16,651 nucleotides of DNA, taken from Sulfurimonadaceae bacterium (GTDB lineage Bacteria > Campylobacterota > Campylobacteria > Campylobacterales > Sulfurimonadaceae). The stretch is taken from NCBI GenBank assembly GCA_041562555.1, contig JBFEXS010000043.1, positions 1-16,651 on the forward strand, in the 5' to 3' direction. Shown here piece by piece: positions 743-16,651 of this stretch (position 1 is its first letter; every line of letters starts with the position of its first letter). The notes beneath the pieces are model-generated. The model was not told the DNA's origin. It saw nothing but the letters and a program-made list of their open reading frames with translations, and did no database searches. The translations under genes were made by a program, and so were the position numbers.

Positions 743-1360
743 GTGGAAAAAATATTGAAATATCTATTGGCATTTATAATTGCATTTATCATATTAGGTG
801 TTATAAATCCTTGGCATGATCAGAAAAAAGTAGGAATCGAGCTTAATATGAGTAAGGAAAGAGCACTTATTACATCATTGAAAAAGCATATTTATGAGCT
901 GTCTCAAAACCGTGAGCCTAATCGTGACCTTAGCCTTGTAGTCTTAGATAACAGAACGATTATTCTACCTTGTTATCAATCAAAGGTATCTGGATATGAT
1001 ACTAATATTACAGCACCGTGTGGGTTTCCAAAACAATTAAGCTTAATAGATGTAAACGGTTCGCTTCGATTAACAAATAATACAGACATACCGAAGAAGT
1101 TGAAACTGGTAGAAAAAAATGGCTCATCTAAACTCATCAATACTCTGTCAGATGGAGCAATGGTCTATGAGCTTGGTCTATTTGAAGACCTTTCCGGGAG
1201 CTCGATAACAAGCCAAGAACTTTCAGATGGCACAGTAAAGATTGTAGGGGCTTATTCAGAATTTACAAATGGTTATTGGCTTTATAATCCAGAAGATGGC
1301 ACGATACTGTATTACGTAAATGGCAAACAAGCTGACTATCCTGATCATTTAAAATACTAA
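743..1360 (+). CDS. Membrane-anchored pilin/pseudopilin-like protein (paralog of 1453..2004)
   Basis: GTG start with AAGGA RBS; N-terminal hydrophobic helix ending in Pro, then amphipathic helix; C-terminal YWLYNPEDG; shared blocks with the convergent ORF. Confidence 0.6.
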   Translation: MEKILKYLLAFIIAFIILGVINPWHDQKKVGIELNMSKERALITSLKKHIYELSQNREPNRDLSLVVLDNRTIILPCYQSKVSGYDTNITAPCGFPKQLSLIDVNGSLRLTNNTDIPKKLKLVEKNGSSKLINTLSDGAMVYELGLFEDLSGSSITSQELSDGTVKIVGAYSEFTNGYWLYNPEDGTILYYVNGKQADYPDHLKY

Positions 1361-1452: not shown

Positions 1453-2004
1453 TTATTCCCACTCTAGAAATCTACTGATGACACCATTGCGGTAAAAGAT
1501 GACATTACCGTCGGCAGGGTCATATACCCAATGACTGTCGGTATTGATATAACTCTCTATGCTGTTTGATGCAAGTCCGAGTATTTTTACCTTGCCGTTT
1601 TCAAGTGCTTCTGTTTTCCATAATCGAGGTTCTTGAAACGATTCAACAGGTATATACAGACCCAAGGGGTATTGGTTTTCAATGCTTCCATCGGCGTTGT
1701 TTGACAGTTTAAGCGTGCCATGGTTTATGACACTGATCTTTTTTGGAAGTCCATCACAATTGATGGTCATATTATGATTCCCAAATTCAGTGTCTTCTAT
1801 ACTTTTCTGATCTTTACAGACAATGGATAAGAGCTTGATATTGGTACGCAACTCATGTATCACATTCAACTCATAGGCCATCTTGGCATCATCACGAAGA
1901 CCATGTTTATGATTCATTGGCAGCAGTATAGTGACTATCAGGAATATGACAATCAGTATAATCAGCAGTTGCAGGATTCTTTTCACAGTGATTTTTTTGT
2001 TCAT
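1453..2004 (-). CDS. Membrane-anchored pilin/pseudopilin-like protein (paralog of 743..1360)
   Basis: N-terminal TM ending LLP, then RDDAK..E...I..LR..I as in Campylobacterota type IV/T2SS pilin-like proteins; C-terminal WVYDPADG. Confidence 0.6.
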   Translation of the reverse strand: MNKKITVKRILQLLIILIVIFLIVTILLPMNHKHGLRDDAKMAYELNVIHELRTNIKLLSIVCKDQKSIEDTEFGNHNMTINCDGLPKKISVINHGTLKLSNNADGSIENQYPLGLYIPVESFQEPRLWKTEALENGKVKILGLASNSIESYINTDSHWVYDPADGNVIFYRNGVISRFLEWE

Positions 2005-5040: not shown

Positions 5041-5745
5041 TTACTGTTTTTCAAATGAAAATCGGTTTCTGAACTCTTTGGCACCGTCTTTGCTTGATTC
5101 TACTTCATCTGAAATACCTTCAAACATAAACCGCAATTTACTTTGTTCTATGGTCTCCATCTCTTTTATCTTATCAATATTGACGAGGTATGAACGGTGT
5201 ACCCGTATGAAATTATAATTTCGCAGCTTTTCTTCAAGGGCGGAAATCTTTTGGGCATAGTAGGAGAAGCCTTTGAGCGTCCGCAGGATAACCTCGGATA
5301 AGTCGGCCTTGACATAAAAAATCTCCTGGGGTTTAAGCAGATAATAGTTATCCCCGTTCTTGCTCAGGATGCGGAGTTCCTCGTCTTGAGTGTTTGGAGT
5401 CTTAATACGTTCAATACTCTGTTTGAGTTGATCAATGCTGAAGGGTTTGACGAGATAAGCGATAGCACCTATATCGAAGGCTTCCAGGGCATGCTCGCTG
5501 TAGGCCGTTTGAAAGACAATTGCCATATCTTCTTGGTGGTAGCGCAATTCATAGGCCAGCTCAAGGCCACTGGTTTGAGGCATATTGATATCCAAGAATG
5601 CGAGATCAAAGCTCTTTTCCTGAATTATTTCAAGTGCCTCTTGTGCACAGCTTGCCTCAACAACCTGGGTGTATCCAAGTGTGTTAAGCATCCGTTTTAA
5701 TCGGGCAAGCCCGAGTTCTTCGTCATCAACGATCAGTATGTTCAT
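5041..5745 (-). CDS. LytTR-family DNA-binding response regulator (AlgR/YpdB-like)
   Basis: REC motifs IVDDE, FLDINMP, FQTAY, YLVKPF; LytTR motif FIRVHRSYLVN. Confidence 0.95.
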   Translation of the reverse strand: MNILIVDDEELGLARLKRMLNTLGYTQVVEASCAQEALEIIQEKSFDLAFLDINMPQTSGLELAYELRYHQEDMAIVFQTAYSEHALEAFDIGAIAYLVKPFSIDQLKQSIERIKTPNTQDEELRILSKNGDNYYLLKPQEIFYVKADLSEVILRTLKGFSYYAQKISALEEKLRNYNFIRVHRSYLVNIDKIKEMETIEQSKLRFMFEGISDEVESSKDGAKEFRNRFSFEKQ

Positions 5746-6736
5746 GGGTGTTTCCTAAGTGAATGTAAAATTGCGGGTGGCTTGTCTCTTTTATCTCTAG
5801 AGAACCTGAAGATAACAGTGCAAGCCGCTGATTGAGATTATTCAGACCTACACCAAAGTCACTGCTCGTCATCGCAGCCCCATTGTTTTTAACCGAAACG
5901 ATCTTGGCCCGGGGCAAAAAGTCTATTGTAATGAGAAGCTCGTTCTGATGGTTTGTATATCCATGCTTGATGGCATTTTCTGCTAGAAGCTGAATCGAAA
6001 ACTTTGGAACCTTCCAGTTTGGGATATTGTCGGCTATCTCTAATCTGATCCTATCAGAAAAACGGATATTCTCTAATTCGATGTAGTCACTGACATTGCG
6101 CAGTTCATCTTTGAGGGGGACAAGCGCTTCTTCTTTCATGGTATTGCGTAAAAATGCAGAGACTTTCAATACGGCTTCTTCGGCCTTTCCTTGGTCATGA
6201 TGGATCAGTTCGGCGATAGAGTTGAGGGCATTGAACAAAAAATGGGGATTGAGTTGTGTCTCAAGGGAACGCAAACGGCTTTGGAGATAATGCTGATCGA
6301 TGACTTCCTTTTCATTACGCATACGTACAAACCGATACAGCAGCGCCCCGACCACATAGGTTAATATCCCGATCGCAATTGAAATCTGAAGGGTGTGGGT
6401 ATGAAACATCGCAATTAACTCGATCTTGAGTGCCTGCGCAGTGTAGGTACTTAAAAGCGTGCCTAAAAACCCGGAGAGAAATGAAAACAGTATGGCAATG
6501 GGGAGCCAATAGACTTTTTTTACACGGGGAAGAATACGCTGATTGATGAAAGTGATAAAGGTCAGGGAAAAAAGTGTAATTAAAAACCCCAGGAGTAGAC
6601 CGTACCAAAGTCCCTCTGTCCATGGTTTTTCCAAGAGGGCATATCCCAAAGAGGAAAGTAACATGCCCAATATTATACCGATCAGCAGGATATAGAGCCA
6701 GTCTTTTGCTTTGATACGCAGTTCGATATCATACAT
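5726..6736 (-). CDS. LytS/YehU-family membrane sensor histidine kinase
   Basis: Several N-terminal TM helices; H-box LETQLNPHFLFNALNSI; N-box QLLAENAIKHG; G2 GVGLNNLNQRL; overlaps the RR start. Confidence 0.95.
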   Translation of the reverse strand: MYDIELRIKAKDWLYILLIGIILGMLLSSLGYALLEKPWTEGLWYGLLLGFLITLFSLTFITFINQRILPRVKKVYWLPIAILFSFLSGFLGTLLSTYTAQALKIELIAMFHTHTLQISIAIGILTYVVGALLYRFVRMRNEKEVIDQHYLQSRLRSLETQLNPHFLFNALNSIAELIHHDQGKAEEAVLKVSAFLRNTMKEEALVPLKDELRNVSDYIELENIRFSDRIRLEIADNIPNWKVPKFSIQLLAENAIKHGYTNHQNELLITIDFLPRAKIVSVKNNGAAMTSSDFGVGLNNLNQRLALLSSGSLEIKETSHPQFYIHLGNTHEHTDR

Positions 6737-8150
6737 CCAGAAGCTTCCTTAGGTTGGCAACACCAAGCATGACCCCAGGCCATCCCTGTGCAGCATACAC
6801 ACTGTCACCAACATGATACAAACCGGTAATTGACGTGTCATTTCCGGGAAGTCTTGGTAGAAAGTTCTTCATAGTGATTGGATTACCTCCCAGTTGCGAG
6901 CGTTTGATGTAGCGTTTAAATGTCTTTGGTGTCGCAGAAAAACAGTGTACAACCTGATCCTCTTGTATGTCTAGTGTAACACAAATGAGTTTAGAAAGTT
7001 CCTGTTCGAGCTGCTTTTTTTGCTGCTTATAGGTTAGTGTATCATCCCAAAACCGACAGTCTGTATGAATAGATGCGGTGATACTGTAGTGACCTTTGGG
7101 CGATATGATATCGTCTTGTATATCCGAAAAGGATACAAAAAGCGCGTTTGAGAGGGTAAAGGGATGAGGCTGTTCCTGAATGATCTGATAATGGTGTGCA
7201 AAGGTCTGCTCACTTTTGATCGTCATATAGAGCATAAAAGAGCTTTGATGGTTTTGCAGATGTGTGTAGCGTTCATAGTACTGCTTTACCGGCTTGTCAT
7301 CAAAAAGTTCAGTGCTGTCATAGATAGTGGAATTGAGTATAAGACGTTTTGCTCTTACGTTTTCTTCGCGTGTATGGACAATAAAATGATCGTGTTTACG
7401 CTCTATTTTGGTGACCGTAGTGTTCAGACGAAGATCCTTTATATTAGCGGTCATAGCATCAAAGACAGCTCCTAGTCCTCCGATCGTATAATGGGTTTCA
7501 TTAAATGTGTACCCCAGGCTTAGTGCCGCAGTAAAAAAGTTGATTTTTTGTGACGGAGCCTGTGCGACAATGAGAATCTGCGATTCGATGAAACGTTCGT
7601 ATTCAGGTGTGATGGAGCCATAAAACCTGCGAATGAAGTCGTGTGCATTGGTACACAGGTATCTTTTGAACTTCCATAAAAGTGGAAGATAGCTTACAAG
7701 TGACAGTACTTTGGACAGCTGCGAACGGTTCTCATAATAATGTCCATGCATACGGTAAAAACGTTCGCCTATGGTATGTACCAGTGTCCAAAACTCCATA
7801 TGTCTCGGATGAGGATAATGTATGTTGAGCTCATATAAAAAGCGTTCAAGGTCTTTGTACCTTGGGACGATCTTGTCTTCTTGTATAACCACGATGGAAG
7901 GATCGGTCTGTATCAGTTTTGGGGTAAACCCAATAGCATCAAACATCTCCTTGACCACATGCCCTGACTGATAGCCTGCCAAGGTTGTAGCCCCGGTGTT
8001 GTAGTAATAGCCTTGATGAGAAAATGTTGAGCTGCAGCCGCCTAAATAGGGCTCCTTCTCAAATAAGACAACCTCATGTCCTTTTGCAGCAAGGTAAGCA
8101 GCGATGCTGGACCCTCCAATCCCGGAGCCTACAACAGCATAATCCTTCAT
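6729..8150 (-). CDS. FAD-dependent oxidoreductase, phytoene desaturase/CrtD-CrtH family
   Basis: VVGSGIGG dinucleotide-binding motif, EKEPYLGGCSSTF...GAT, ATPKTFKRY, C-terminal GLYHVGDSV..AQGWPGV. Confidence 0.85.
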   Translation of the reverse strand: MKDYAVVGSGIGGSSIAAYLAAKGHEVVLFEKEPYLGGCSSTFSHQGYYYNTGATTLAGYQSGHVVKEMFDAIGFTPKLIQTDPSIVVIQEDKIVPRYKDLERFLYELNIHYPHPRHMEFWTLVHTIGERFYRMHGHYYENRSQLSKVLSLVSYLPLLWKFKRYLCTNAHDFIRRFYGSITPEYERFIESQILIVAQAPSQKINFFTAALSLGYTFNETHYTIGGLGAVFDAMTANIKDLRLNTTVTKIERKHDHFIVHTREENVRAKRLILNSTIYDSTELFDDKPVKQYYERYTHLQNHQSSFMLYMTIKSEQTFAHHYQIIQEQPHPFTLSNALFVSFSDIQDDIISPKGHYSITASIHTDCRFWDDTLTYKQQKKQLEQELSKLICVTLDIQEDQVVHCFSATPKTFKRYIKRSQLGGNPITMKNFLPRLPGNDTSITGLYHVGDSVYAAQGWPGVMLGVANLRKLLDV

Positions 8151-9082
8151 TGCTTCATCCCTTCATAGAGTGAAGAAATGCACTTGACAAAAGCGGGATG
8201 ATCATTGGGTGCTTTGGCCACTTTATAGGTATCAAACCCAAGCTGCATAGCAAGCTCTTTATACTCAATATCCAATTCAAATTCTGTCTCGGAGTTATCC
8301 ATCGTGAAGGAAAGAGGATAGATAATGACCTTTTTCTTTTTCAGGCTTGCCAATTTGTCTTCCAGGTAAGGACGGATCCATTCCAAGGGTCCTACTCTGG
8401 ATTGATAGGCCAGGTGGGTCTTATGAAAATAAATACCTGCAGTTACAAGTGCTTTTCTGGCATAGAAAAGGTTGTACTTTATATGACGTTGATAACTGTC
8501 TCCCTTATCAATGAGACGTTGGGTCAGACCATGGGCAGAGAACACAAGCTCATATTCGCCGGGGTCCTCATCTAAAAGCTGTTCCTTGATCCGTTCAACG
8601 ATGGCCTGAATGTAATCAGGATGCTTGTAGTAATGTTCCAGTGTCTTTACGTCAGCAGTGATATTGTGCTGTTTGATACCTTGTTTGAGCTCTTCGAGAC
8701 TTGAGAGTGTTGTTGTTGATGAATAATGCGGATAAAGGGGAATAGCATAGATCTCATCTACGTGTTTTAGCTTCTCTAACACATCGTTAGCAAAAGGCGG
8801 GGTATAGCGCATCACCATATGTACCGTTGCGTCAACCTGTGACTCAAGGGCTTTGATAAACTGCTTGGTATAACCGATAATAGGCGATTTTCCACCGATA
8901 CGGGCATAGTTGTTCCTAGCCTCGTCTTTGCGCTTGAAAGTGATTAGTTTAGAGATGATGGTACGAATCGGTTGAGGGGCACCTATGATGTGTTTGTCAT
9001 TAAACATATTGCTCAGAAACACTTCGACTTCGTCTAGGTTCCTAGGTCCACCCATATTCATAAGCAAGATCGCACGTTTCAT
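8147..9082 (-). CDS. hemH: Ferrochelatase
   Basis: LLMNMGGP, FLSNMFND, Y..IGGKSP, MRYTPP, PLYPHYSSTT, FSAHGL, AYQSRVGPLEWIRP, DNSETEFELDIEY. Confidence 0.97.
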   Translation of the reverse strand: MKRAILLMNMGGPRNLDEVEVFLSNMFNDKHIIGAPQPIRTIISKLITFKRKDEARNNYARIGGKSPIIGYTKQFIKALESQVDATVHMVMRYTPPFANDVLEKLKHVDEIYAIPLYPHYSSTTTLSSLEELKQGIKQHNITADVKTLEHYYKHPDYIQAIVERIKEQLLDEDPGEYELVFSAHGLTQRLIDKGDSYQRHIKYNLFYARKALVTAGIYFHKTHLAYQSRVGPLEWIRPYLEDKLASLKKKKVIIYPLSFTMDNSETEFELDIEYKELAMQLGFDTYKVAKAPNDHPAFVKCISSLYEGMKQ

Positions 9083-9108
9083 ATCTACCTCCCTGTACTA
9101 TATCTATA

Positions 9109-9157
9109 ATGGTAATACAGGGATCATATCTTTGGTAGGTGAAAAATGTCGATTAAT
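9109..9157 (-). promoter_or_regulatory. Conserved motif copy 1 plus -10 (TACCAT) upstream of the hemH-desaturase-HK-RR operon
   Basis: + strand TTTGGTAG(9131-9138)-gtgaaaaa-TGTCGATTAAT(9147-9157); -10 at 9109-9114, 16 nt from the motif. Confidence 0.7.
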
Positions 9158-9163
9158 TGGCTT

Positions 9164-9982
9164 TTATCCCATAAGATCCTCTAAGGCTTTATCGATCCTT
9201 TCAAACTCAAAATGAAACCCTGCTTCTTGCAGCGCCTTGGGATAGACCTCTTTAGAATCGGTCAATACAGAAGCTGCCTCTGCATATATAAGCCGTAGAG
9301 CGAAGAGGGGAACCGGTAAAAGTGTCGGACGTTTCAGTGCCTTTCCCAGTGCTTTTGTAAAGGTTTTGTTTGTCACAGGATGAGGTGCCGTCGCATTATA
9401 GATACCTTTCAGGCGATTTTCGATGATAAAAGTGTAGATGTTTGCAAGGTCTTTGATGTGAATCCAGCTTGTCATCATCGAACCATCTCCTATTGTACCG
9501 CCTAGTCCCAATCTGAAAGGGAGAAGCATCTGTGCCAAAGCCCCACCGTTTTTCCCCAGGACAATCCCAAAGCGTAAGATGGCGGTTGGCTTGTTGCATT
9601 TCAGTGCTTCGCGTTCCCAGGCCATTGTCAGCGATCCTAAAAAATCATCGGCTGTTTGAGTGGATGATTCATCACAGGCAATGTTGTTTGGATAGATACC
9701 GATAGCCGAGGTTGAAATAAAATGTTGGACATCACTTTGGTCAATGGCTTGTACAAGTTTCTTTGTCGTTTCTATGCGACTGTTGATCAAGGTGTTTTTA
9801 TAGGTGTCGTTCCAACGTTTGATAATGGGGGCACCCGCAAGATTAATGACAATTTCGACATCTTTAAGCTTGTCCAGAAGTGCAGGTATATCGTCGTGTC
9901 GGTCAAGGATGACATGGTCTTGAAACCTTTGCTGTAACGCTGTTCCGACAAAACCATGTGCACCGGTAAAAGCTACTTTCAT
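9164..9982 (-). CDS. TIGR01777 (YfcH-like) NAD-dependent epimerase/oxidoreductase
   Basis: Start moved to ATG 9982 (AAAGGAGAG RBS); TGAHGFVG, VINLAGAPI, SRIETT, SAIGIY, WEREA, LRFGIVLG..GGAL, FRLGLGG.IGDG, SWIHIKD. Confidence 0.93.
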   Translation of the reverse strand: MKVAFTGAHGFVGTALQQRFQDHVILDRHDDIPALLDKLKDVEIVINLAGAPIIKRWNDTYKNTLINSRIETTKKLVQAIDQSDVQHFISTSAIGIYPNNIACDESSTQTADDFLGSLTMAWEREALKCNKPTAILRFGIVLGKNGGALAQMLLPFRLGLGGTIGDGSMMTSWIHIKDLANIYTFIIENRLKGIYNATAPHPVTNKTFTKALGKALKRPTLLPVPLFALRLIYAEAASVLTDSKEVYPKALQEAGFHFEFERIDKALEDLMG

Positions 9983-10028
9983 GAAGTCTCTCCTTTGAGT
10001 TGCAGGTGACATTTGTGAAATCGATGAC

Positions 10029-10059
10029 ATCTGTTTATTGTAACGTAATTTAAACAGAT
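10029..10059 (-). promoter_or_regulatory. Inverted repeat ATCTGTTTA-N13-TAAACAGAT overlapping a TACAAT -10 upstream of TIGR01777
   Basis: 9-bp perfect arms 10029-10037 and 10051-10059; minus-strand TACAAT at 10037-10042. Could instead be a terminator/stabilising hairpin after the 31-aa ORF. Confidence 0.45.
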
Positions 10060-10084
10060 CTCGAATCGTATACGTCTATGCTCT

Positions 10085-10180
10085 CTAGCCCTTGTCCCAC
10101 ACATACAAAAGCAGCAGCAGTGCCAGGCCAAAAGGCAGGACAAGCAGTTTCACCTGAAGTTCATCAATGAAACGGTTCAT
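10085..10180 (-). CDS. Unannotated 31-aa single-pass membrane peptide
   Basis: MNRFIDELQVKLLVLPFGLALLLLLYVWDKG*; strong RBS AGAAGGAGGGAG just upstream; preceded by conserved motif copy 2. Confidence 0.7.
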   Translation of the reverse strand: MNRFIDELQVKLLVLPFGLALLLLLYVWDKG

Positions 10181-10202
10181 ATCTCCCTCCTTCTATCTAT
10201 AT

Positions 10203-10251
10203 AGTCTATAGAAGATAGGAGCTTTTTGGTAGCGTATTTATGTCGATTGAT
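10203..10251 (-). promoter_or_regulatory. Conserved motif copy 2 plus -10 (TAGACT) upstream of the 31-aa peptide
   Basis: + strand TTTGGTAG(10225-10232)-cgtattta-TGTCGATTGAT(10241-10251); -10 at 10203-10208, 16 nt from the motif. Confidence 0.7.
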
Positions 10252-10262
10252 AGATATTTGAA

Positions 10263-10793
10263 TCAGTTGTTAGGACTTAGCTGCTTTTCAATGCGTATAG
10301 GCTCAGCTTTGAGTGTGTCATAATAACCTTTTCCCAGGAACAGGGTCGGTCTTATACGCTTTTGTTCCTTGTTCAAAATAAGGTTGACATCTACAATAAA
10401 AAGGTCATGGTCTCCGTAATTAAGTCTATCTGTGAGGGTACACTCATAAATAAGGTACGCCTCTTCAATAAGATCACTTTTTATGGTGAGGGCATTTTTC
10501 TTATGAAGCCCGCTTAGTTTGAATTTATCGGTATATTGGCCATGTACTTCACCGCATAACTGGTAGGCTTTGTGATAAGAGATATCCAAAAAGTTCAGGG
10601 CACACTCTTTATACTTATTCAGGAGTTCATGGGTATGGTTTTCGCTTCGCAGGGCAAATGCATATCGGAAAGGCTCTTTTGATATTGGCATGTGCCAAGC
10701 TAATGGCATGATATTGCTGCCACATGTCAGCAGGGCAGCAACACGGGGTTGAGGATGGGATTTTTCATTTAGGTTTGGTGTTGTGTTAAACAT
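10263..10793 (-). CDS. Flavin reductase-like (DIM6/NTAB) FMN-binding protein
   Basis: Start moved to ATG 10793 (GGAG RBS, overlaps SRPBCC stop); NIMPLAW, ECALNF, DKF..SGL, IYEC, GDHDLFI motifs. Confidence 0.88.
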   Translation of the reverse strand: MFNTTPNLNEKSHPQPRVAALLTCGSNIMPLAWHMPISKEPFRYAFALRSENHTHELLNKYKECALNFLDISYHKAYQLCGEVHGQYTDKFKLSGLHKKNALTIKSDLIEEAYLIYECTLTDRLNYGDHDLFIVDVNLILNKEQKRIRPTLFLGKGYYDTLKAEPIRIEKQLSPNN

Positions 10794-11253
10794 TTTGTTT
10801 CTCCAATATGGTTTTAGTATGCTGATGTCTGTAAGTGAACATCTTTCGCATCTCATGTTTTATAAAGGGTAGGACAAGATGACTGAATGGATACATGGGA
10901 AGAGAAAACTCCAGTTCATCACAGAGCAGGCTTGTCGTATCGTTCAGGGCTTCGAATCTGTGATAATGGATAAATGAGGCAAAGGGACTTTGCATGGCTT
11001 TATCACAGACAAGTTGATGAGGTGTGAGTTTTGCTATTTTCATTCTCCAAGGCTGTGAGAATTTAAAACGGGTGATATCAAGGCTTATCTCACTTCCTTC
11101 ATATAGAGGTGGTGTGAATGAAGTGATTTTGACCTTTAAGTATGGTGGGGTGATCTTAGGCAGATTGTTTGTATCTATATGGAAATCATAGAGTGATGCA
11201 GTATCACATTCAATCTGTGTGCAAAACTTCATGCGTATTGTTTTTTGAAACAT
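10786..11253 (-). CDS. SRPBCC/START-fold (polyketide cyclase-like) ligand-binding protein
   Basis: DFH....NLPKITPP, W...I, D.....PF..F.H.HRF, D.LEF.LP, MF.YRH motifs of the SRPBCC family often linked to TIGR01777. Confidence 0.88.
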   Translation of the reverse strand: MFQKTIRMKFCTQIECDTASLYDFHIDTNNLPKITPPYLKVKITSFTPPLYEGSEISLDITRFKFSQPWRMKIAKLTPHQLVCDKAMQSPFASFIHYHRFEALNDTTSLLCDELEFSLPMYPFSHLVLPFIKHEMRKMFTYRHQHTKTILEKQNV

Positions 11254-11763
11254 TTAATCTCCCTGAGGGGTCCAGATAAGGGGACCTGTCGCATATCCAA
11301 AAGCAGGGAGCTTTGTTAAAATGGTATCAAGTACCTCGTGGCTGAGTTTTGGGGTACGCGATAGGATCCATAAATATTCTCTACTAGGCTCACCGACAAC
11401 AGCATAGCTATAGTCTGTGTCAAGCATAAGAATCCAGTAGTCCCCATAAAACGGTCTGAAAAAACTGACCTTTAGTTTACTGTTGTCTTCATCAACCGGG
11501 TAGGCAACACCGATTGCTTCTGTGAGCGTGCCGTCTTCTTTCATACATCGGTTAAGTACTTTGATATCACCGTCTTCTTTCATGGAGTATGTGGCGGACA
11601 CATCGCGACAACCTTTTTCAAATACATGTTCATATCTGGCTATCTCATACCATGTGCCGAGATACTTTTGAAGCTCTACATTGTCGACGGTGTTGAGGTT
11701 AGGATAGGATTTGCTGCATCCTCCCGATAACAGTAATAATAAGATGAGTAACAAACGTAACAT
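11254..11763 (-). CDS. blc: Outer-membrane lipoprotein lipocalin (Blc family)
   Basis: Lipoprotein signal ending GGC; YLGTWYEIAR, SKLKVSFFRPFYGDYWI, YLWILSRTP. Confidence 0.93.
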   Translation of the reverse strand: MLRLLLILLLLLSGGCSKSYPNLNTVDNVELQKYLGTWYEIARYEHVFEKGCRDVSATYSMKEDGDIKVLNRCMKEDGTLTEAIGVAYPVDEDNSKLKVSFFRPFYGDYWILMLDTDYSYAVVGEPSREYLWILSRTPKLSHEVLDTILTKLPAFGYATGPLIWTPQGD

Positions 11764-11781
11764 TAATGATCCTTTTGGATT

Positions 11782-11830
11782 ATGATGACGTAATAGCCGA
11801 TTGTTTGGTAGGCTCTATTTGTCACTTCAT
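11782..11830 (-). promoter_or_regulatory. Conserved motif copy 3 upstream of blc-SRPBCC-flavin reductase
   Basis: + strand TTTGGTAG(11804-11811)-gctctatt-TGTCACTTCAT(11820-11830); weaker -10 CATCAT at 11782-11787, same 16-nt spacing. Confidence 0.65.
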
Positions 11831-11855
11831 TAAAAAACGTGTCGCAAATGGTAAT

Positions 11856-13802
11856 TTAGAGGTACTGTGCCAATACCTGTTTTAAAGCCTTACTTTCAAT
11901 GGGTTTGGAAAGGTGTGCATTCATTCCCATTTGCATGTACGATTCAATGTCTTCTTTCATCACATTCGCCGTTAAGGCAATGATAGGGATGCTGTTGTTG
12001 GGATACGAGGACTTTCGGATCAGTTGTGTTGCTTCAATGCCGTTTGTATGCGGCATGTTGATGTCCATCAGGATCAGGTCATAGTCGGGGAAGGTTTTAA
12101 AGGCATCGAATGCTTCCTGACCATTTTCTACAAGTGTATAGGTAAGGTTCAAGTCCTCAAGGAGAAGAGAGATAAGAAGTTGGTTGGTCTTGTTGTCTTC
12201 GGCGACAAGAACATGTCCGTGCAGTTCGATGATGGATTCATCCTCATTTTCCTTTTGTATGACACCTGCCTCCGGTGCATGTATTGAAAAAGAGAAGGTA
12301 CTGCCTTGTCCGAGAGCACTCTTCAGATGGATTTCTCCTCCCAAAAGTTCAATGAGTTTTTTGGATATGCTGAGTCCTAAGCCTGTCCCGCCATAGTTTC
12401 TTGTTGTAGATATCTCAGCCTGCTCAAAGGGATTGAAAATACGTTTCTGGGCTTCTTCCGATATGCCGATTCCCTGATCTTTTACAGCCATATGCAAGAG
12501 TTTACCCTGTCTATGCAGGCTAATGGATATTGTTGAATTTTCCGGAGAGAACTTGATGGCATTGGAGATAAGATTGGAGAGTATCTGTTTAAGACGTAAG
12601 GGATCAGTATGAACATAATCTGAAAGTCCATCGGGATAATCAAAGTGTAAGGCAATGTTCTTGGAATCTGTGATCGATGTGAAAAAGGTTATTAGTTGGT
12701 GAAGATGGAGCCTCAGGTCAAAATCGATAGACTCTGTTTTCATACTACCATCTTCGATTTTGCTAAGATCAAGAATGTCGTTGATCACTACAAGGAGAGA
12801 TTTTGAAGCGTTCTCGATTATATCGAGGTACTCTCTTTTTTTCTTATCTGTTTCACCTTTTTGTAAAAGTTCAATAAACCCCATGATGCCGTTTAGAGGT
12901 GTGCGTATCTCATGACTCATATTGGCCAAAAACAGACTTTTTGAACGATTGGCATTCTCAGCTCTTTCCTTCTCTTGTATGAGACTCTGTTCTATCAGTT
13001 TAAGCTCAGTGATGTCCTGTACCGTTCCCTGACTCAGTACGGCCTTTCCTGTTTCGGAATAGAGGGTTTCCCCCCGTTCGATGACATACTTGATACGTCC
13101 GTCTTTCATTAAAAGGCGGTGTTCAATATTATAGGCAGTCCTGTTCTCCAAAGAGGTGTTGAAAGCCGCATTCACCTTTTCAACATCGTCGGGGTGGATG
13201 CTGTTTAAAAATCCTTCGTAAGAGGGTTGAAAAGTATGTGGATCTATCTCAAAAATGGTATATATCTGATCCGACCATAGCAAGGTGTTGCTCCTAAGAT
13301 CAAGCGACCAGCTTCCGATATTGGCAATTCGTTGTGCTTCATTGAGTCTGTTTTTACTGGTACTTAAATCCTCTGCAATACGTTTGCTTTCGGAGATATC
13401 TTTTGCGACACCGATGTAACCGGTCACTTTGCCTGTATTGTCCTTAAGGGCCGTAACCGAAAGAAGTACAGGTATGTGTCTGCCGTTTTTTGCGACGTAT
13501 GTCCATTCGTGCTCATTGGGTAACCCCAAGTCTGTTTTGGCGACGAAGACTTTAAACCCTGGTTGGATCTCTTGAGCCAACTCATCTGAAAATTCTCGGG
13601 CTCTTTTTATGACTTCGGATTCGATATGAAAAACTGCAGGTGTCAATCGCTCGATCAACTCTTGTGCTGTGTAGCCCAATAGATTTTCGGCAGCTTTATT
13701 GAACTTTGTGATGACCCCTTCGGTGTTGGTGGCAATGAGAAGGTGATCGACATTGTCGAATATGGCATTGGTGAGTACTTCGGTGTTGGTTCCCATATAC
13801 AC
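11856..13802 (-). CDS. Cytoplasmic hybrid sensor histidine kinase (PAS-PAS-HisKA-HATPase-REC)
   Basis: PAS (FNKAAENLLGY, EWTYVAKNG), second PAS (IGSW..WSDQIY..IHPDD), FLANMSHEIRTPLNG, NLISNAIKF, YGGTGLGL, REC AEDN/ILMDINMP; no TM. Start may be ATG 13796. Confidence 0.95.
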   Translation of the reverse strand: MYMGTNTEVLTNAIFDNVDHLLIATNTEGVITKFNKAAENLLGYTAQELIERLTPAVFHIESEVIKRAREFSDELAQEIQPGFKVFVAKTDLGLPNEHEWTYVAKNGRHIPVLLSVTALKDNTGKVTGYIGVAKDISESKRIAEDLSTSKNRLNEAQRIANIGSWSLDLRSNTLLWSDQIYTIFEIDPHTFQPSYEGFLNSIHPDDVEKVNAAFNTSLENRTAYNIEHRLLMKDGRIKYVIERGETLYSETGKAVLSQGTVQDITELKLIEQSLIQEKERAENANRSKSLFLANMSHEIRTPLNGIMGFIELLQKGETDKKKREYLDIIENASKSLLVVINDILDLSKIEDGSMKTESIDFDLRLHLHQLITFFTSITDSKNIALHFDYPDGLSDYVHTDPLRLKQILSNLISNAIKFSPENSTISISLHRQGKLLHMAVKDQGIGISEEAQKRIFNPFEQAEISTTRNYGGTGLGLSISKKLIELLGGEIHLKSALGQGSTFSFSIHAPEAGVIQKENEDESIIELHGHVLVAEDNKTNQLLISLLLEDLNLTYTLVENGQEAFDAFKTFPDYDLILMDINMPHTNGIEATQLIRKSSYPNNSIPIIALTANVMKEDIESYMQMGMNAHLSKPIESKALKQVLAQYL

Positions 13803-13902
13803 AAACCTTTTTTGGCTCTTTCTGCATTAAGCTTACATGTAAACAACTTGTATATAACTAAAAACCAAATATTACAATTAATAATACCAAAGAGTGATGC
13901 AT

Positions 13903-14781
13903 CTAAAAGAGCCAGACAATTTTGGCATTCAGACCTATAGACGGCTCGATCGAATAGGATGAATGCTCTTTGCCAAGGGAATCGAAGATCGTAAAGTCAC
14001 GTCTAATACTGTAGAGTATATTGGCTTCGCATTTGAGATGCTGGTTGAACCTGTAGGTAGCGCCTATGTTGCCCATATAGTCTTTGGCCTCGATGAAACC
14101 GGAGTTTTCGATTGTACTCTCGTTACTGAGTTTAATAACGGATTGGGAATAGATGATACCAAGTTTAAAAAGTGTTGACTCATTGGCATGATAGGCAATA
14201 TAGGTTCGTGGAAACCCTAGAATAACTTGAAGTCCGTCATTTTGGCGTGCCCGATAACTATAGCTAATGACAGGCAAAGCAAGTGTGGATACCTTGTGAT
14301 AGTTAGCGAATGCACCCAGTTGGATAGTATGGTCATCATCGATTTTGTATGAAGCAAATGAAAACAGACCAGCCCCATAGGAATCTTTGGTGTTCTTCTC
14401 AAAGGCGGAACGTATCGAAGCAGATGTTAAAAGGAACCATTTCTTATTGATGAAAAAAGGCAGGTTGGCATTGAGCTTAAAGGCATGCATCTGTGTGATG
14501 GGGCTGCTTTGTTGATCTCCAAAGGGAAGAGCATGCAGATCATCCCATGAAAATGCCCAGTGTGTATAGCTTAGGCCGATTATCTCATTATTAACGCGTA
14601 AACGGTTTTTATGGACTTCGACACTTCCCTCACTCCCTTTGATGTCTGCATCTGCCAAATAGGAAGATTCAAACGTGACTTTTGGCTGAATGATCCTTTC
14701 AAGTAGACCCTTTTGAAGCTGTTCTTTGGACCAGGATGGCAAACAGAGTAGTGAGAGTAAAAGAACCGGTCTTAGCATCAT
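13903..14781 (-). CDS. Outer-membrane beta-barrel protein (DUF6268-like)
   Basis: Signal peptide, alternating amphipathic strands, LPVISYSY and LGFPRT motifs, C-terminal Phe (IVWLF); start overlaps the photolyase stop. Confidence 0.65.
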   Translation of the reverse strand: MMLRPVLLLSLLCLPSWSKEQLQKGLLERIIQPKVTFESSYLADADIKGSEGSVEVHKNRLRVNNEIIGLSYTHWAFSWDDLHALPFGDQQSSPITQMHAFKLNANLPFFINKKWFLLTSASIRSAFEKNTKDSYGAGLFSFASYKIDDDHTIQLGAFANYHKVSTLALPVISYSYRARQNDGLQVILGFPRTYIAYHANESTLFKLGIIYSQSVIKLSNESTIENSGFIEAKDYMGNIGATYRFNQHLKCEANILYSIRRDFTIFDSLGKEHSSYSIEPSIGLNAKIVWLF

Positions 14782-16133
14782 GACAAGGTCTCTTTGAAAT
14801 ATTGCAACGCCTTTTGTGAAGCTTCTTTATGACGGATAAGGGGCTGCGGATAATCGCTGAGGTGATAGCTAAACAGCTTCTGTTCATCATGTAAAAGCAT
14901 GGGGTCTATATCCCTTAGCGCCGGAATCCAATGTTTGATGTAACTTGCTTCTTTATCAAACTTCTTGGCTTGTAGGTAAGGGTTGAAAATACGAAAGTAG
15001 GGTTGAGGGTCGATACCTGTTCCTGCACTCCATTGCCAGGATAGCGTGTTTGAAGCGGTATCATAGTCGAGCAGGTGGCGCGCAAAGAACTTCTCACCCC
15101 ATTGCCAGGGGAGCATGAGGTCTTTTGTGAAAAATGATGCGCAGATCATACGGACCCTGTTGTGCATATATCCCGTTTTCACTAGCTGGTTGATACCGGC
15201 ATCAATGATCGGCACGCCCGTCTTCGCTGTGCAGAATGCATTGAAGGTACTCTCATTGGCTACGCCTTTAAAGCGATATTTGTAGTTCTCATGCTCGATA
15301 CGCGGAAAATGGTAGAGAAGATAAGCATAAAAATCCCGAAATACCAATTGTCTGAAAAACGGTTCGGTATCAATACCCGATTCTCTTTTCCGTGCCAAGA
15401 AACGCAATACCTCTCGGATTGAAATGGTGCCAAAACGCAGATGAACCCCCAGCCCAGAGGTTCCTTCAAGTATAGGGAACTCTCTGTTCTTTTGGTATTG
15501 AGAGAGATTCAAATGCTCAAGCAGTGTTTGTGGTTCCCCGATCTGGATATCAACGGATGTAAAGCCCAAAGAACCGAGGGCTATGGGAAAACTGTTTTCT
15601 TGGGTATCGTCTACCTTGAATATCCGGGTGTAGTCGGTATCAAAACGTGTCTGTTGTGCTGAAAGAGATGTTTTTAGGTGCTCTTTGCCAAAGAGTGATT
15701 TTGCTTTGTTGTAAAAGGGAGTAAACATGAGATATGGGGTGCGATCATTTTTCATGACTCCATCTGGTTCAAAAATATAGGTATCATGCATGTAATTGAA
15801 GGGAAGTATATGTGAGACCTCTCGGTCCCTTTGCCGTGCATAACTGTCATAGTCACCGCTGGCGGCAACTTCGTCAAAACCGAGTGTTGCCAGTTGTTTA
15901 AACACCTTGATCGGATCTGCCAGGTATAACTTTAGATCAAGCCCTTTTGACTGTAGAGCTTTTTTCAGTCGGATGACCTGTGCAAAGATGAAAGAGATCC
16001 GTCTGTCATCTGCATCTAGCTTTTGAAGGATATTCGTGTCGAAGATAAAGATAGGCAGCACCTCACCCTCAAGGGATAGTAGGGGATTGTCATCTGTGCG
16101 CAGATCACGTCTGAACCAAAGGATGCGCTTCAT
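14778..16133 (-). CDS. phrB: Deoxyribodipyrimidine (CPD) photolyase
   Basis: WFRRDLRTDDN, PY.MFTPF, TSGLGVHLRFGTISIR, TGVPIIDAG, GYMHNRVRM, DYD.ASN..SWQW, YFRIFNP..Q.KKFD; Asn opposite flavin N5 retained. Confidence 0.95.
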   Translation of the reverse strand: MKRILWFRRDLRTDDNPLLSLEGEVLPIFIFDTNILQKLDADDRRISFIFAQVIRLKKALQSKGLDLKLYLADPIKVFKQLATLGFDEVAASGDYDSYARQRDREVSHILPFNYMHDTYIFEPDGVMKNDRTPYLMFTPFYNKAKSLFGKEHLKTSLSAQQTRFDTDYTRIFKVDDTQENSFPIALGSLGFTSVDIQIGEPQTLLEHLNLSQYQKNREFPILEGTSGLGVHLRFGTISIREVLRFLARKRESGIDTEPFFRQLVFRDFYAYLLYHFPRIEHENYKYRFKGVANESTFNAFCTAKTGVPIIDAGINQLVKTGYMHNRVRMICASFFTKDLMLPWQWGEKFFARHLLDYDTASNTLSWQWSAGTGIDPQPYFRIFNPYLQAKKFDKEASYIKHWIPALRDIDPMLLHDEQKLFSYHLSDYPQPLIRHKEASQKALQYFKETLS

Positions 16134-16651
16134 TTCCCACTTCGGATATCTGAGCGTAAAGCCAGGTTTTTTGGATAAGGAGTCAAAAACTTTTGTCCAA
16201 GAATGTAGGAGGCATCATATTTATGTGCCAACATGGACAGCATGCTTAGCGGAGTGATAAGAGGGATGATCTTGTGTGCATAATCATGGATCTGTTCGTG
16301 TAAAGCACGCTTTTCTATATCTGACATCTCTTTTTTCATGAACCCCGCCATATGTTCAAGTACATTACGAGTTTTTTTAATACTGCTCTTATGGGCTATG
16401 GCGGTTTTAAATCCTTCTTCATAGGCATGGAAAAGCTCACTAAAGTTGTCCTTGTCATGACTTCCGACGAGATTGCCAAGCTGACGGTAACTGCGTTCAT
16501 CTTTTGATTGCAGCATGAATTTATATGATTGATGGAATTGCACAAGTTCTTTGATGGCGGGTTGTGACGCCTTGAATTGTTCAAAGTCCTCATAGGCAAA
16601 AAGCTGCATGATAAAGTTCTCGCGTAGCCAGGGATCGTTTAGTCGGCCTTC
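16130..16651 (-). CDS. ybgA: YbgA-family protein (DUF523/DUF1722), 5' end outside the window
   Basis: Frame stays open to the edge: EGRLNDPWLRENFIMQLFAY...; LVQFHQSYKFML, NVLEHMAGF.K, Q.FL.PYP..L.LR; ATGA overlap with phrB as in E. coli ybgA-phr. Confidence 0.92.
   Translation of the reverse strand, partial: EGRLNDPWLRENFIMQLFAYEDFEQFKASQPAIKELVQFHQSYKFMLQSKDERSYRQLGNLVGSHDKDNFSELFHAYEEGFKTAIAHKSSIKKTRNVLEHMAGFMKKEMSDIEKRALHEQIHDYAHKIIPLITPLSMLSMLAHKYDASYILGQKFLTPYPKNLALRSDIRSGK

Follow-up and report, generated by a model that had tools for sequence, protein, structure and literature searches.

A candidate LytTR operator over the -35 position of promoters in a putative photo-oxidative defence regulon of sulfur-oxidising Campylobacterota

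Contig JBFEXS010000043.1 (C43) of a Sulfurimonadaceae bacterium (assembly GCA_041562555.1), 16,651 bases long and analysed in its entirety (hereafter, the window), carries three copies of a bipartite DNA element, each standing ahead of a different transcription unit and each at the same distance from a -10-like hexamer. The element is probably an autoregulated activator site of the neighbouring LytTR-type response regulator, overlapping the -35 position of the promoters that it would control. The regulator is encoded in one operon with a LytS-type histidine kinase, a CrtI/CrtD-like FAD oxidoreductase (AOX), and a ferrochelatase (hemH), and the genes found behind the sites appear, by analogy with regulons described in other bacteria, to serve photo-oxidative (light or singlet-oxygen) defence in sulfur-oxidising Campylobacterota.

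The Three Copies and Their Promoter Parts

The pattern TTTGGTAG-N8-TGTC is found on the + strand at 9131, 10225, and 11804, as reported in the initial annotation of this DNA. All three copies are intergenic, lie in one orientation, and stand upstream of minus-strand genes, namely hemH, a 31-codon open reading frame (ORF) followed by a short-chain dehydrogenase/reductase (SDR) gene, and blc. With up to one mismatch allowed, three occurrences in the window compare with a mean of 0.07 in 200 shuffles, none of which reached three, and the whole genome of 2,099,561 bases contains exactly three matches to the pattern, all of them inside the window. The three -10-like hexamers named in the same annotation stand exactly at the 16 nt given there. 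The parts are listed below, with scores from a matrix built from other genomes only.

9132..9157, minus strand: candidate operator copy 1, AATTAATCGACA-N8-CTACCAA, 26.5 bits
9109..9114, minus strand: predicted -10 hexamer of copy 1, TACCAT, 16 nt past CTACCAAA
10226..10251, minus strand: candidate operator copy 2, ATCAATCGACA-N8-CTACCAA, 35.3 bits
10203..10208, minus strand: predicted -10 hexamer of copy 2, TAGACT, 16 nt past CTACCAAA, based on spacing statistics
11805..11830, minus strand: candidate operator copy 3, AATGAAGTGACA-N8-CTACCAA, 28.0 bits
11782..11787, minus strand: predicted -10 hexamer of copy 3, CATCAT, 16 nt past CTACCAAA

Copy 1 is located 6-31 nt past the stop codon of the SDR gene and ahead of hemH, and the orthologous site of the congener G003 also precedes hemH (genomes, contigs, and loci of the comparison are labelled G, C, and L, respectively). 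Transcription from copy 1 would start near 9102, with the ATG of hemH at 9082. At copy 3, a CATAAT at 11779-11784 overlaps the CATCAT hexamer, 3 nt further down. The similarity of copies 1 and 2 extends past the operator: over 24 nt that cover leader, ribosome site, and first codons, 9074-9097 and 10172-10195 are 83% identical, a hint that one of the two promoter regions may derive from the other by copying.

Anatomy of the Element

Sites for the logo were chosen by the core GACA-N8-CTAC together with an in-register xAxxxT, excluding sites in open frames, and the resulting 83 were reduced to 80 once near-duplicates were removed. On the coding strand, the element consists of 26 bases, AYnAAnyGACA-N8-CTACnAA, followed by 16 nt and a TAnnAT -10 box, and its N8 comprises four mostly A/T bases (+5 to +8) and then four free bases. 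At positions outside the selection, A-7 is present in 66, Y-6 in 78, A-4 in 79, A-3 in 73, and Y-1 in 74 of the 80 sites, while the likewise selection-independent A+18 and A+19 are found in 79 and 77, respectively. The -10 hexamer T-A-n-a-A-T occupies +37 to +42, its T, A, and T being kept in 67, 75, and 77 of the 80 sites. The spacing holds generally, since 55 of 65 non-redundant sites picked on the upstream motif alone show a TAnnnT with a spacer of precisely 16 nt. Upstream of -8, no position is conserved in the 80 aligned sites; thus, the degenerate echoes that had been pointed out 20 bp further out, whose letters are indeed present, are taken as chance.

The logo shows no dyad symmetry at any centre (best value 0.81, versus 2.14 for the direct register), and its self-similarity has maxima at offsets of 13 (2.14) and 21 (1.82). 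The 21-bp period reflects a recurring AYnAA and corresponds to two boxes of 9 nt spaced 12 nt apart, which differ in their remaining positions. TACnAA occupies the -35 position, where the initial annotation had placed its invariant half, and no TTGACA-like hexamer is present there in the 80-site logo. If transcription starts about 7 nt past the -10 box, the element would span about -56 to -30, with its centre at about -43. With respect to the predicted start, these promoters fit the class II type of activator-dependent sigma-70 promoter, for which a good -10 box, no -35 hexamer, and an activator site in fixed register and centred near -41.5 are expected.

Several other readings of the same letters were considered and rejected. 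With the distal half as a -35 box, the TCGACA of copy 1 pairs with a TATGAT at 18 nt, a -10 partner that copies 2 and 3 lack, and +22 to +28 are unconserved across the 80 sites. GACA and CTAC taken as a -35/-10 pair are separated by only 8 nt, and a sigma-54 promoter would need a GG-N10-GC that is absent, an opposite-strand GG being lost in relatives. An operator of the MerR/LitR type was also discarded, as there is no palindrome and the element lies upstream of the -35/-10 spacer and not within it.

Resemblance to LytTR Binding Sites

LytTR sites are described, in the available text of one source, as imperfect repeats of [TA][AC][CA]GTTN[AG][TG] that lie 12-13 bp apart and upstream of the -35, with the proximal box being more weakly bound (PMC5600425). 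Other sources, likewise available in part, give repeats of 9-11 nt and spacers of 11-13 nt with no common consensus (PMC4847170), and place the repeats typically 4-11 bp upstream of the -35 hexamer (PMC6193735). In the present element, where two positions per box were fixed beforehand by site selection, the distal box agrees with the consensus at at least 8 of 9 positions in 44 of the 80 sites (15 of them at 9 of 9), versus 0.6% of control 9-mers. This bears out the likeness to the LytTR consensus previously noticed in the half TC(G/A)(A/C)TTNAT. The proximal box, 21 bp on, agrees at at least 7 of 9 positions in 39 of 80 sites, versus 6.1% of controls, an agreement that comes from AYnAA alone.

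Sites in This Genome and in Its Relatives

When this genome is scanned with a matrix trained on 76 sites, all from other genomes, four sites emerge (35.3, 28.4, 28.0, and 26.5 bits), followed by a next best match of 16.1 bits; among the weaker matches (16.1 bits or less), none has an in-register -10 box. The four comprise the three copies in the window and a site on contig C54, ahead of thiD-thiE-THI5 (THI5/NMT1) and with TACAAT in the same register as the other -10 boxes. This unit, which begins with a leader of about 20 nt, extends over about 2808-5150 of C54 on the minus strand. Thiamine synthesis genes are also found behind sites in several relatives.

The element is conserved across relatives in Sulfurovum, Sulfurimonas, and Sulfuricurvum. 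The 62 relative loci retrieved via the AOX protein total 739 kb and contain the bare core GACA-N8-CTAC 56 times, in 51 cases with a -10-like xAxxxT at an offset of 35-37, and 98 matrix matches of at least 18 bits are present across 63 loci (the 62 and the window). The genes behind these sites include hemH, AOX, kinase, regulator, SDR, Blc, SRPBCC, flavin reductase, and glutathione peroxidase; a furan-fatty-acid-type cluster of amine oxidase, DUF1365, cyclopropane-fatty-acid (CFA) synthase, and DUF3833; thiD/thiE/THI5, CbiX, and ybgA-photolyase; and PNP oxidase, ABC1 kinase, SOUL, PAS-GGDEF-EAL proteins, and BLUF genes. Within the same genus, sites precede hemH in G003, G004, and G016, thiD in G004 and G015, blc in G004 (once) and G015 (twice), AOX in G015 and G001, and a BLUF gene in G010. 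In G004 and G015, sites also precede the same small ORF as in the window, followed by a classical-type SDR, unlike the YfcH-type SDR of the window. A site ahead of AOX is also found in G031, which belongs to a different family. Back-to-back operators on opposite strands, about 20 bp apart and serving divergent operons, were observed in L039/L025 (G031), in G084 (C3, 18534-18598), and in L068 (G380).

A further site had been predicted upstream of ybgA-phrB, beyond the window. Directly ahead of ybgA in congeners, no site above 9 bits exists within 1.5 kb; ybgA instead lies further down longer operons, headed by a 28.5-bit site in G003 (thiE, THI5, CbiX, ybgA, phr, and a 292-aa ORF), by a 27.8-bit site in G004 (thiD, thiE, THI5, CbiX, and ybgA), and weakly by an 18.3-bit site with CTAT in G015 (BLUF, SDR, ybgA, phr, and PAS kinase). 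No site was found heading the ybgA-phr operon of G013. In Sulfuricurvum-like loci, ybgA-phr lies downstream of the regulator in the same operon, and in G218 a DUF523-ybgA gene is directly preceded by a site. The ybgA-photolyase unit of the window is probably a further unit of the regulon, its promoter lying outside the window. A DUF523 match on C81, the only one in the genome, was considered as the missing 5' end of ybgA and rejected, as it is contig-internal, forms a separate frame of 162 residues, and has no site nearby.

Linkage between the Element and the Regulator

In relatives, a site is present within 1.4 kb ahead of the hemH/AOX-kinase-regulator operon at 45 of 52 loci (50 of 52 at 12 bits or more), the 52 being those with at least 1400 nt of upstream sequence, with one locus skipped. 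Copy 1 had been noted to precede the operon with the kinase and the regulator and to imply autoregulation, which is supported by these loci, because the element heads the regulator's own operon in 45 of them.

Moreover, 401 genomes were sampled from the order, and the regulator was called at an E value of 1e-30 or better in 70 of them. The strict pattern AANYGACAWWWNNNNNCTACNAA occurs in 38 of the 401, namely in 24 of the 70 with the regulator versus 14 of the 331 without it, and the same pattern read backwards, which served as control, occurs in 14 of the 401. The strict pattern tracks the regulator, with the 14 of 331 corresponding to the control rate. Matches in genomes without the regulator lie mostly in open frames, five of them in one conserved radical-SAM gene; those that look promoter-like are found in G327, as one of two in G402, and perhaps in G074. 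In 15 genomes, a strict match and the regulator gene are about 6 kb apart or less, and in several of these the match stands directly after the regulator gene, driving the next gene. Regulator-carrying genomes without the strict pattern carry variants wherever they were inspected, such as GACAC in G013 (32.6 bits), ATAC in G354, and diverged forms in G033. The locus L149 (C17 of G354) illustrates that most sites of that genus have ATAC or GTAC instead of CTAC, and the cores of the Arcobacter-like G033 have diverged further still (GGCA, GTAC). The operator thus differs between lineages, and counts based on the strict pattern are too low.

The regulator of the window is the sole LytTR match in its genome. 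No extracytoplasmic function (ECF) sigma factor gene is present in the assembly, which is 89% complete and contains only two sigma-70-family genes, one RpoD-like and the other, of 240 aa, FliA-looking; the two MerR genes of this genome are located elsewhere, and no second family of transcription factors is found repeatedly across the 62 loci. Near the hemH genes of five regulator-less congeners and the only blc orthologue found among them (G012), no site was found, the best scores being -5.4 to 3.8 bits. Taken comparatively, conservation, the position ahead of the regulator's own operon, co-occurrence, the single LytTR protein, the lack of an ECF sigma factor, and the fit of the distal half to the LytTR consensus support the suggestion, made initially from the window alone, that the element is a binding site of the encoded LytTR regulator.

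Genes of the Window

The window corresponds to the whole of C43, in an assembly of 137 contigs with 42.7% G+C, whose kin, as judged by one window protein, are named Sulfurovum, Sulfurimonas, Sulfuricurvum, or Sulfurimonadaceae metagenome-assembled genomes. Sequencing runs that match positions 8000-12000 comprise four DNA runs of one study and no RNA run. Every relevant gene lies on the minus strand, and the units are listed in the order of transcription.

11856..16651, minus strand: ybgA (DUF1722; 5' end cut by the contig end), photolyase, a 292-aa outer-membrane-like ORF, and a PAS hybrid kinase (Pfam/NCBIfam)
10263..11763, minus strand: copy 3 unit, with lipocalin Blc, an SRPBCC protein, and a flavin-reductase-like protein (ORFs, Pfam)
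9164..10183, minus strand: copy 2 unit, with the 31-codon ORF (10088-10183) and a YfcH/DUF1731 SDR (9164-9982) (ORFs, Pfam)
8147..9082, minus strand: island-specific second ferrochelatase hemH, first gene past copy 1
6729..8150, minus strand: AOX, CrtI/CrtD-like FAD oxidoreductase, beside kinase and regulator
5726..6736, minus strand: LytS-type histidine kinase (PF06580), four predicted membrane helices
5041..5745, minus strand: REC-LytTR response regulator, 234 aa (Pfam Response_reg 4.3e-28, LytTR 1.8e-19)

The regulator gene is the last of the copy 1 operon, 3.4 kb downstream of the element. The stop of AOX overlaps the start of the kinase gene and the end of the latter overlaps the start of the regulator gene (5726-8150), and the AOX-kinase stop/start overlap recurs in 40 listed loci. 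Among the 62 loci retrieved via AOX, AOX is present in 62, the kinase in 55, and the regulator in 50. AOX is only distantly related to carotenoid desaturases. No known sensor domain was recognised in the kinase, whose membrane part contains many invariant polar residues (D12, N65, S57, S85, T126, and Y127), as would be expected for a ligand- or lipid-sensing site. Since this genome has another hemH (C1, 54002-54934), the hemH of the island is regarded as a dedicated paralogue. It is the first gene past the operator in 40 of the 62 AOX loci, and regulator-less congeners have a single (housekeeping) hemH, 46-49% identical to that of the window.

From its first start codon, the SDR gene of the copy 2 unit would extend over 9164-10030. 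The 31-codon ORF ahead of it (10088-10183, minus strand) encodes MNRFIDELQVKLLVLPFGLALLLLLYVWDKG and has no Pfam match; a similar small ORF (MNHF.EEL...) follows the equivalent sites of G004 and G015, and a conserved membrane peptide is the probable product. The hybrid kinase that closes the photolyase operon (11856-13802) has a PAS-PAS-HisKA-HATPase-REC architecture without the LOV signature NCRFL; it is present in only 2 of the 62 related loci and, thus, is not considered a conserved sensor of the regulon. An Rfam scan of the window gave no family above its threshold and, hence, a riboswitch does not explain the leaders.

Past the regulator, the contig end (3-4482) contains a VirD4/T4CP-like fragment (3-470) and four ORFs without family match, two of which, 743-1360 (+) and 1453-2004 (-), are paralogous to each other. 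The regulator is carried by only 4 of the 16 same-genus genomes in the sample searched, and the regulators of genus g70, from another family, are 65-69% identical to that of the window, whereas that of the congener G013 is only 58% identical. The VirD4/T4CP-like contig end, the patchy presence among congeners, and the closer regulators of g70 together suggest a horizontally moving island.

Proposed Mechanism and Alternative Explanations

According to the explanation preferred here, the LytS-type four-helix kinase would phosphorylate the regulator at Asp52, and the regulator would occupy, in head-to-tail fashion, a pair of dissimilar LytTR-type boxes with a period of 21 bp (9 nt each, with 12 nt between them). 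Placed at about -56 to -30, the phosphorylated regulator could act like a class II activator and recruit the housekeeping RNA polymerase. Four targets would be controlled in this genome, namely hemH2-AOX-kinase-regulator, small ORF-SDR, blc-SRPBCC-flavin reductase, and thiD-thiE-THI5 on C54, and copy 1 would provide positive feedback on the first of them. Whereas the anatomy, the conservation, the linkage to the regulator, and the fixed distance to a -10 box are seen directly in the sequences, binding, activation rather than repression, stoichiometry, and signal are inferred. More tentatively, the conserved and translationally coupled trio of AOX, four-helix LytS-type kinase, and LytTR regulator may constitute a hitherto undescribed module that senses damage by light or singlet oxygen (lipid oxidation) and that, in chemolithotrophic Campylobacterota, has taken over a regulon of the sigmaE-ChrR/LitR type, a possibility on the weaker side of even. 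In such a module, the flavoprotein would make or sense the signal, the intramembrane kinase would read it, and the operator would be its output, while the dedicated second ferrochelatase could drain the photosensitiser protoporphyrin.

Several observations weigh against the assignment of the element to the LytTR regulator. Four positions of the proximal box, those other than AYnAA, are at background frequency, the two halves are no clean direct repeat, with self-similarity peaking at offset 13 besides 21, and the most conserved bases, C+3, A+4, C+13, and T+14, fall outside the 9-nt boxes. Known LytTR repeats lie upstream of the -35 position, but here the proximal box (+15 to +23) sits on top of it. 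Moreover, the matrix behind the count of 45 of 52 loci was trained partly on the same loci, and the strict pattern is missing in 46 of the 70 regulator-carrying genomes. Plausible sites also occur where no regulator was found, in G010 (ahead of the BLUF gene), G327, and G001 (ahead of AOX), all three 84% complete, and in G402, which is 99% complete and was covered except for 4188 bases.

Another transcription factor could bind the element, the AOX-kinase-LytTR operon being merely one member of its regulon, and the four genomes just mentioned, in which neither kinase nor regulator was found, fit this alternative, as does an element that is no textbook LytTR direct repeat and overlaps the -35. 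However, the 62 loci contain no other recurrent transcription-factor family, the strict pattern falls to the control rate where the regulator is missing (14 of 331, versus 24 of 70), sites directly adjoin the regulator gene in several families, and three of the four exception genomes are only 84% complete while the fourth has the uncovered bases just mentioned, so that this alternative is fairly unlikely. The LytTR regulator might also bind so as to repress, or to regulate in both directions (for example, in its unphosphorylated state), promoters that are otherwise constitutive, since a site that covers the -35 region could block RNA polymerase and the direction of regulation is unreadable from sequence. 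The 16-nt spacing kept in 55 of 65 sites, which repressor sites would seldom keep, fits an activator touching the polymerase, and TACnAA stands where a constitutive promoter would have a -35-like hexamer; in the available text of PMC6193735, characterised LytTR regulators are mostly activators, with positive autoregulation being typical. Repression or dual regulation is, thus, considered quite improbable.

It is very improbable that an alternative sigma factor, either of the ECF/sigmaE-ChrR or of another kind, uses the element as its promoter. This possibility draws on the strictly fixed distance to the downstream hexamer and on the sigmaE-ChrR system running the same gene set in alpha- and gamma-proteobacteria, according to the part of PMC6852236 that was available, but neither of the two sigma-70-family genes of the 89% complete assembly is of ECF type, the downstream hexamer is a housekeeping-type TAnnAT, the 8-nt gap between GACA and CTAC is too short for a -35/-10 pair, and the sigma-54 GG-N10-GC is lacking. 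Finally, the copies could lack any regulatory role and be remnants of a local duplication, or repeat by chance. Promoter duplication may have contributed, given the leader and ribosome site that copies 1 and 2 share over 24 nt at 83%. Nevertheless, the core has been kept while the free bases have varied, ahead of both orthologous and non-orthologous operons and in many genera, and three copies are observed where 0.07 are expected, which leaves this last explanation with a negligible probability.

Significance

LytTR regulators are known chiefly from quorum sensing, virulence, and pyruvate sensing, and, to our knowledge, few LytTR operators have been defined. A literature search, with subscription journals mostly outside its scope, turned up neither a description of this system nor a report that ties any LytTR system to genes of photolyase, light, or singlet oxygen. 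The present element, with about 100 sites in several genera and an unusual placement over the -35 region, is a well-resolved candidate operator. It is likely that the element is a LytTR operator in an unusual position and that its regulon is one run elsewhere by unrelated regulators. If so, a whole regulon would be assigned to an uncharacterised two-component system, and a widely shared photo-oxidative gene set (photolyase, furan-fatty-acid genes, lipocalin, and glutathione peroxidase) would have come under a third type of regulator, unrelated to the other two. Sulfur oxidisers are usually considered dark-adapted; a light-damage regulon would be kept as an accessory island in such organisms.

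Comparison with Known Systems

The YpdA/YpdB and BtsS/BtsR systems of E. coli resemble the present one in combining a PF06580 kinase with a REC-LytTR regulator. Both control single transporter genes and sense pyruvate. In contrast, the system described here has a four-helix kinase without a recognised sensor domain, a CrtI-like flavoprotein gene that is always directly upstream with overlapping stop and start, and a regulon of many operons. The nearest named NCBIfam model for the regulator is BtsR, at 120.6 bits versus a cut-off of 246, and the regulator is, thus, no BtsR orthologue. YpdB binds a direct repeat of GGCATTTCAT, as stated in the available text of PMC4847170.

The AgrA promoters (agr P2/P3 of S. 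aureus) are similar in several respects, as far as the available parts of the sources describe them, since a REC-LytTR protein recognises imperfect consensus boxes with a spacer of 12-13 bp, the promoter-proximal box is the weaker one, and the regulator activates its own operon, as is predicted here (PMC5600425, PMC4227749). However, in the present element the proximal box lies over the -35, the boxes are dissimilar, and the best-conserved bases, GACA and CT, stand at the box edges or in the spacer. Moreover, the setting is Campylobacterota and stress defence, as opposed to Firmicutes and quorum sensing for AgrA.

In HdrRM/BrsRM of S. mutans, a LytTR protein likewise activates its own operon via promoter-near repeats with a spacer of 11-13 bp, according to the accessible text of PMC6193735. 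Unlike here, the systems described there consist of a stand-alone LytTR protein and a membrane inhibitor, with no kinase, and the repeats lie 4-11 bp upstream of the -35.

In gene content, much is shared with the sigmaE-ChrR (ECF11) and MerR/LitR regulons, which, in the available parts of the sources, include photolyase, CFA-synthase/furan-fatty-acid genes, DUF1365, amine oxidase, and glutathione peroxidase (PMC6852236, PMC5241685). The same texts describe sigmaE-ChrR as running largely this gene set in the singlet-oxygen response of alpha- and gamma-proteobacteria (PMC6852236) and the CFA synthase of Vibrio as induced by blue light (PMC5241685). These regulators also autoregulate their own operon, as predicted for the regulator studied here. 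The difference lies in the control, since a LytTR two-component system with its own promoter signal would here take the place of an ECF/anti-sigma pair or a B12-MerR protein.

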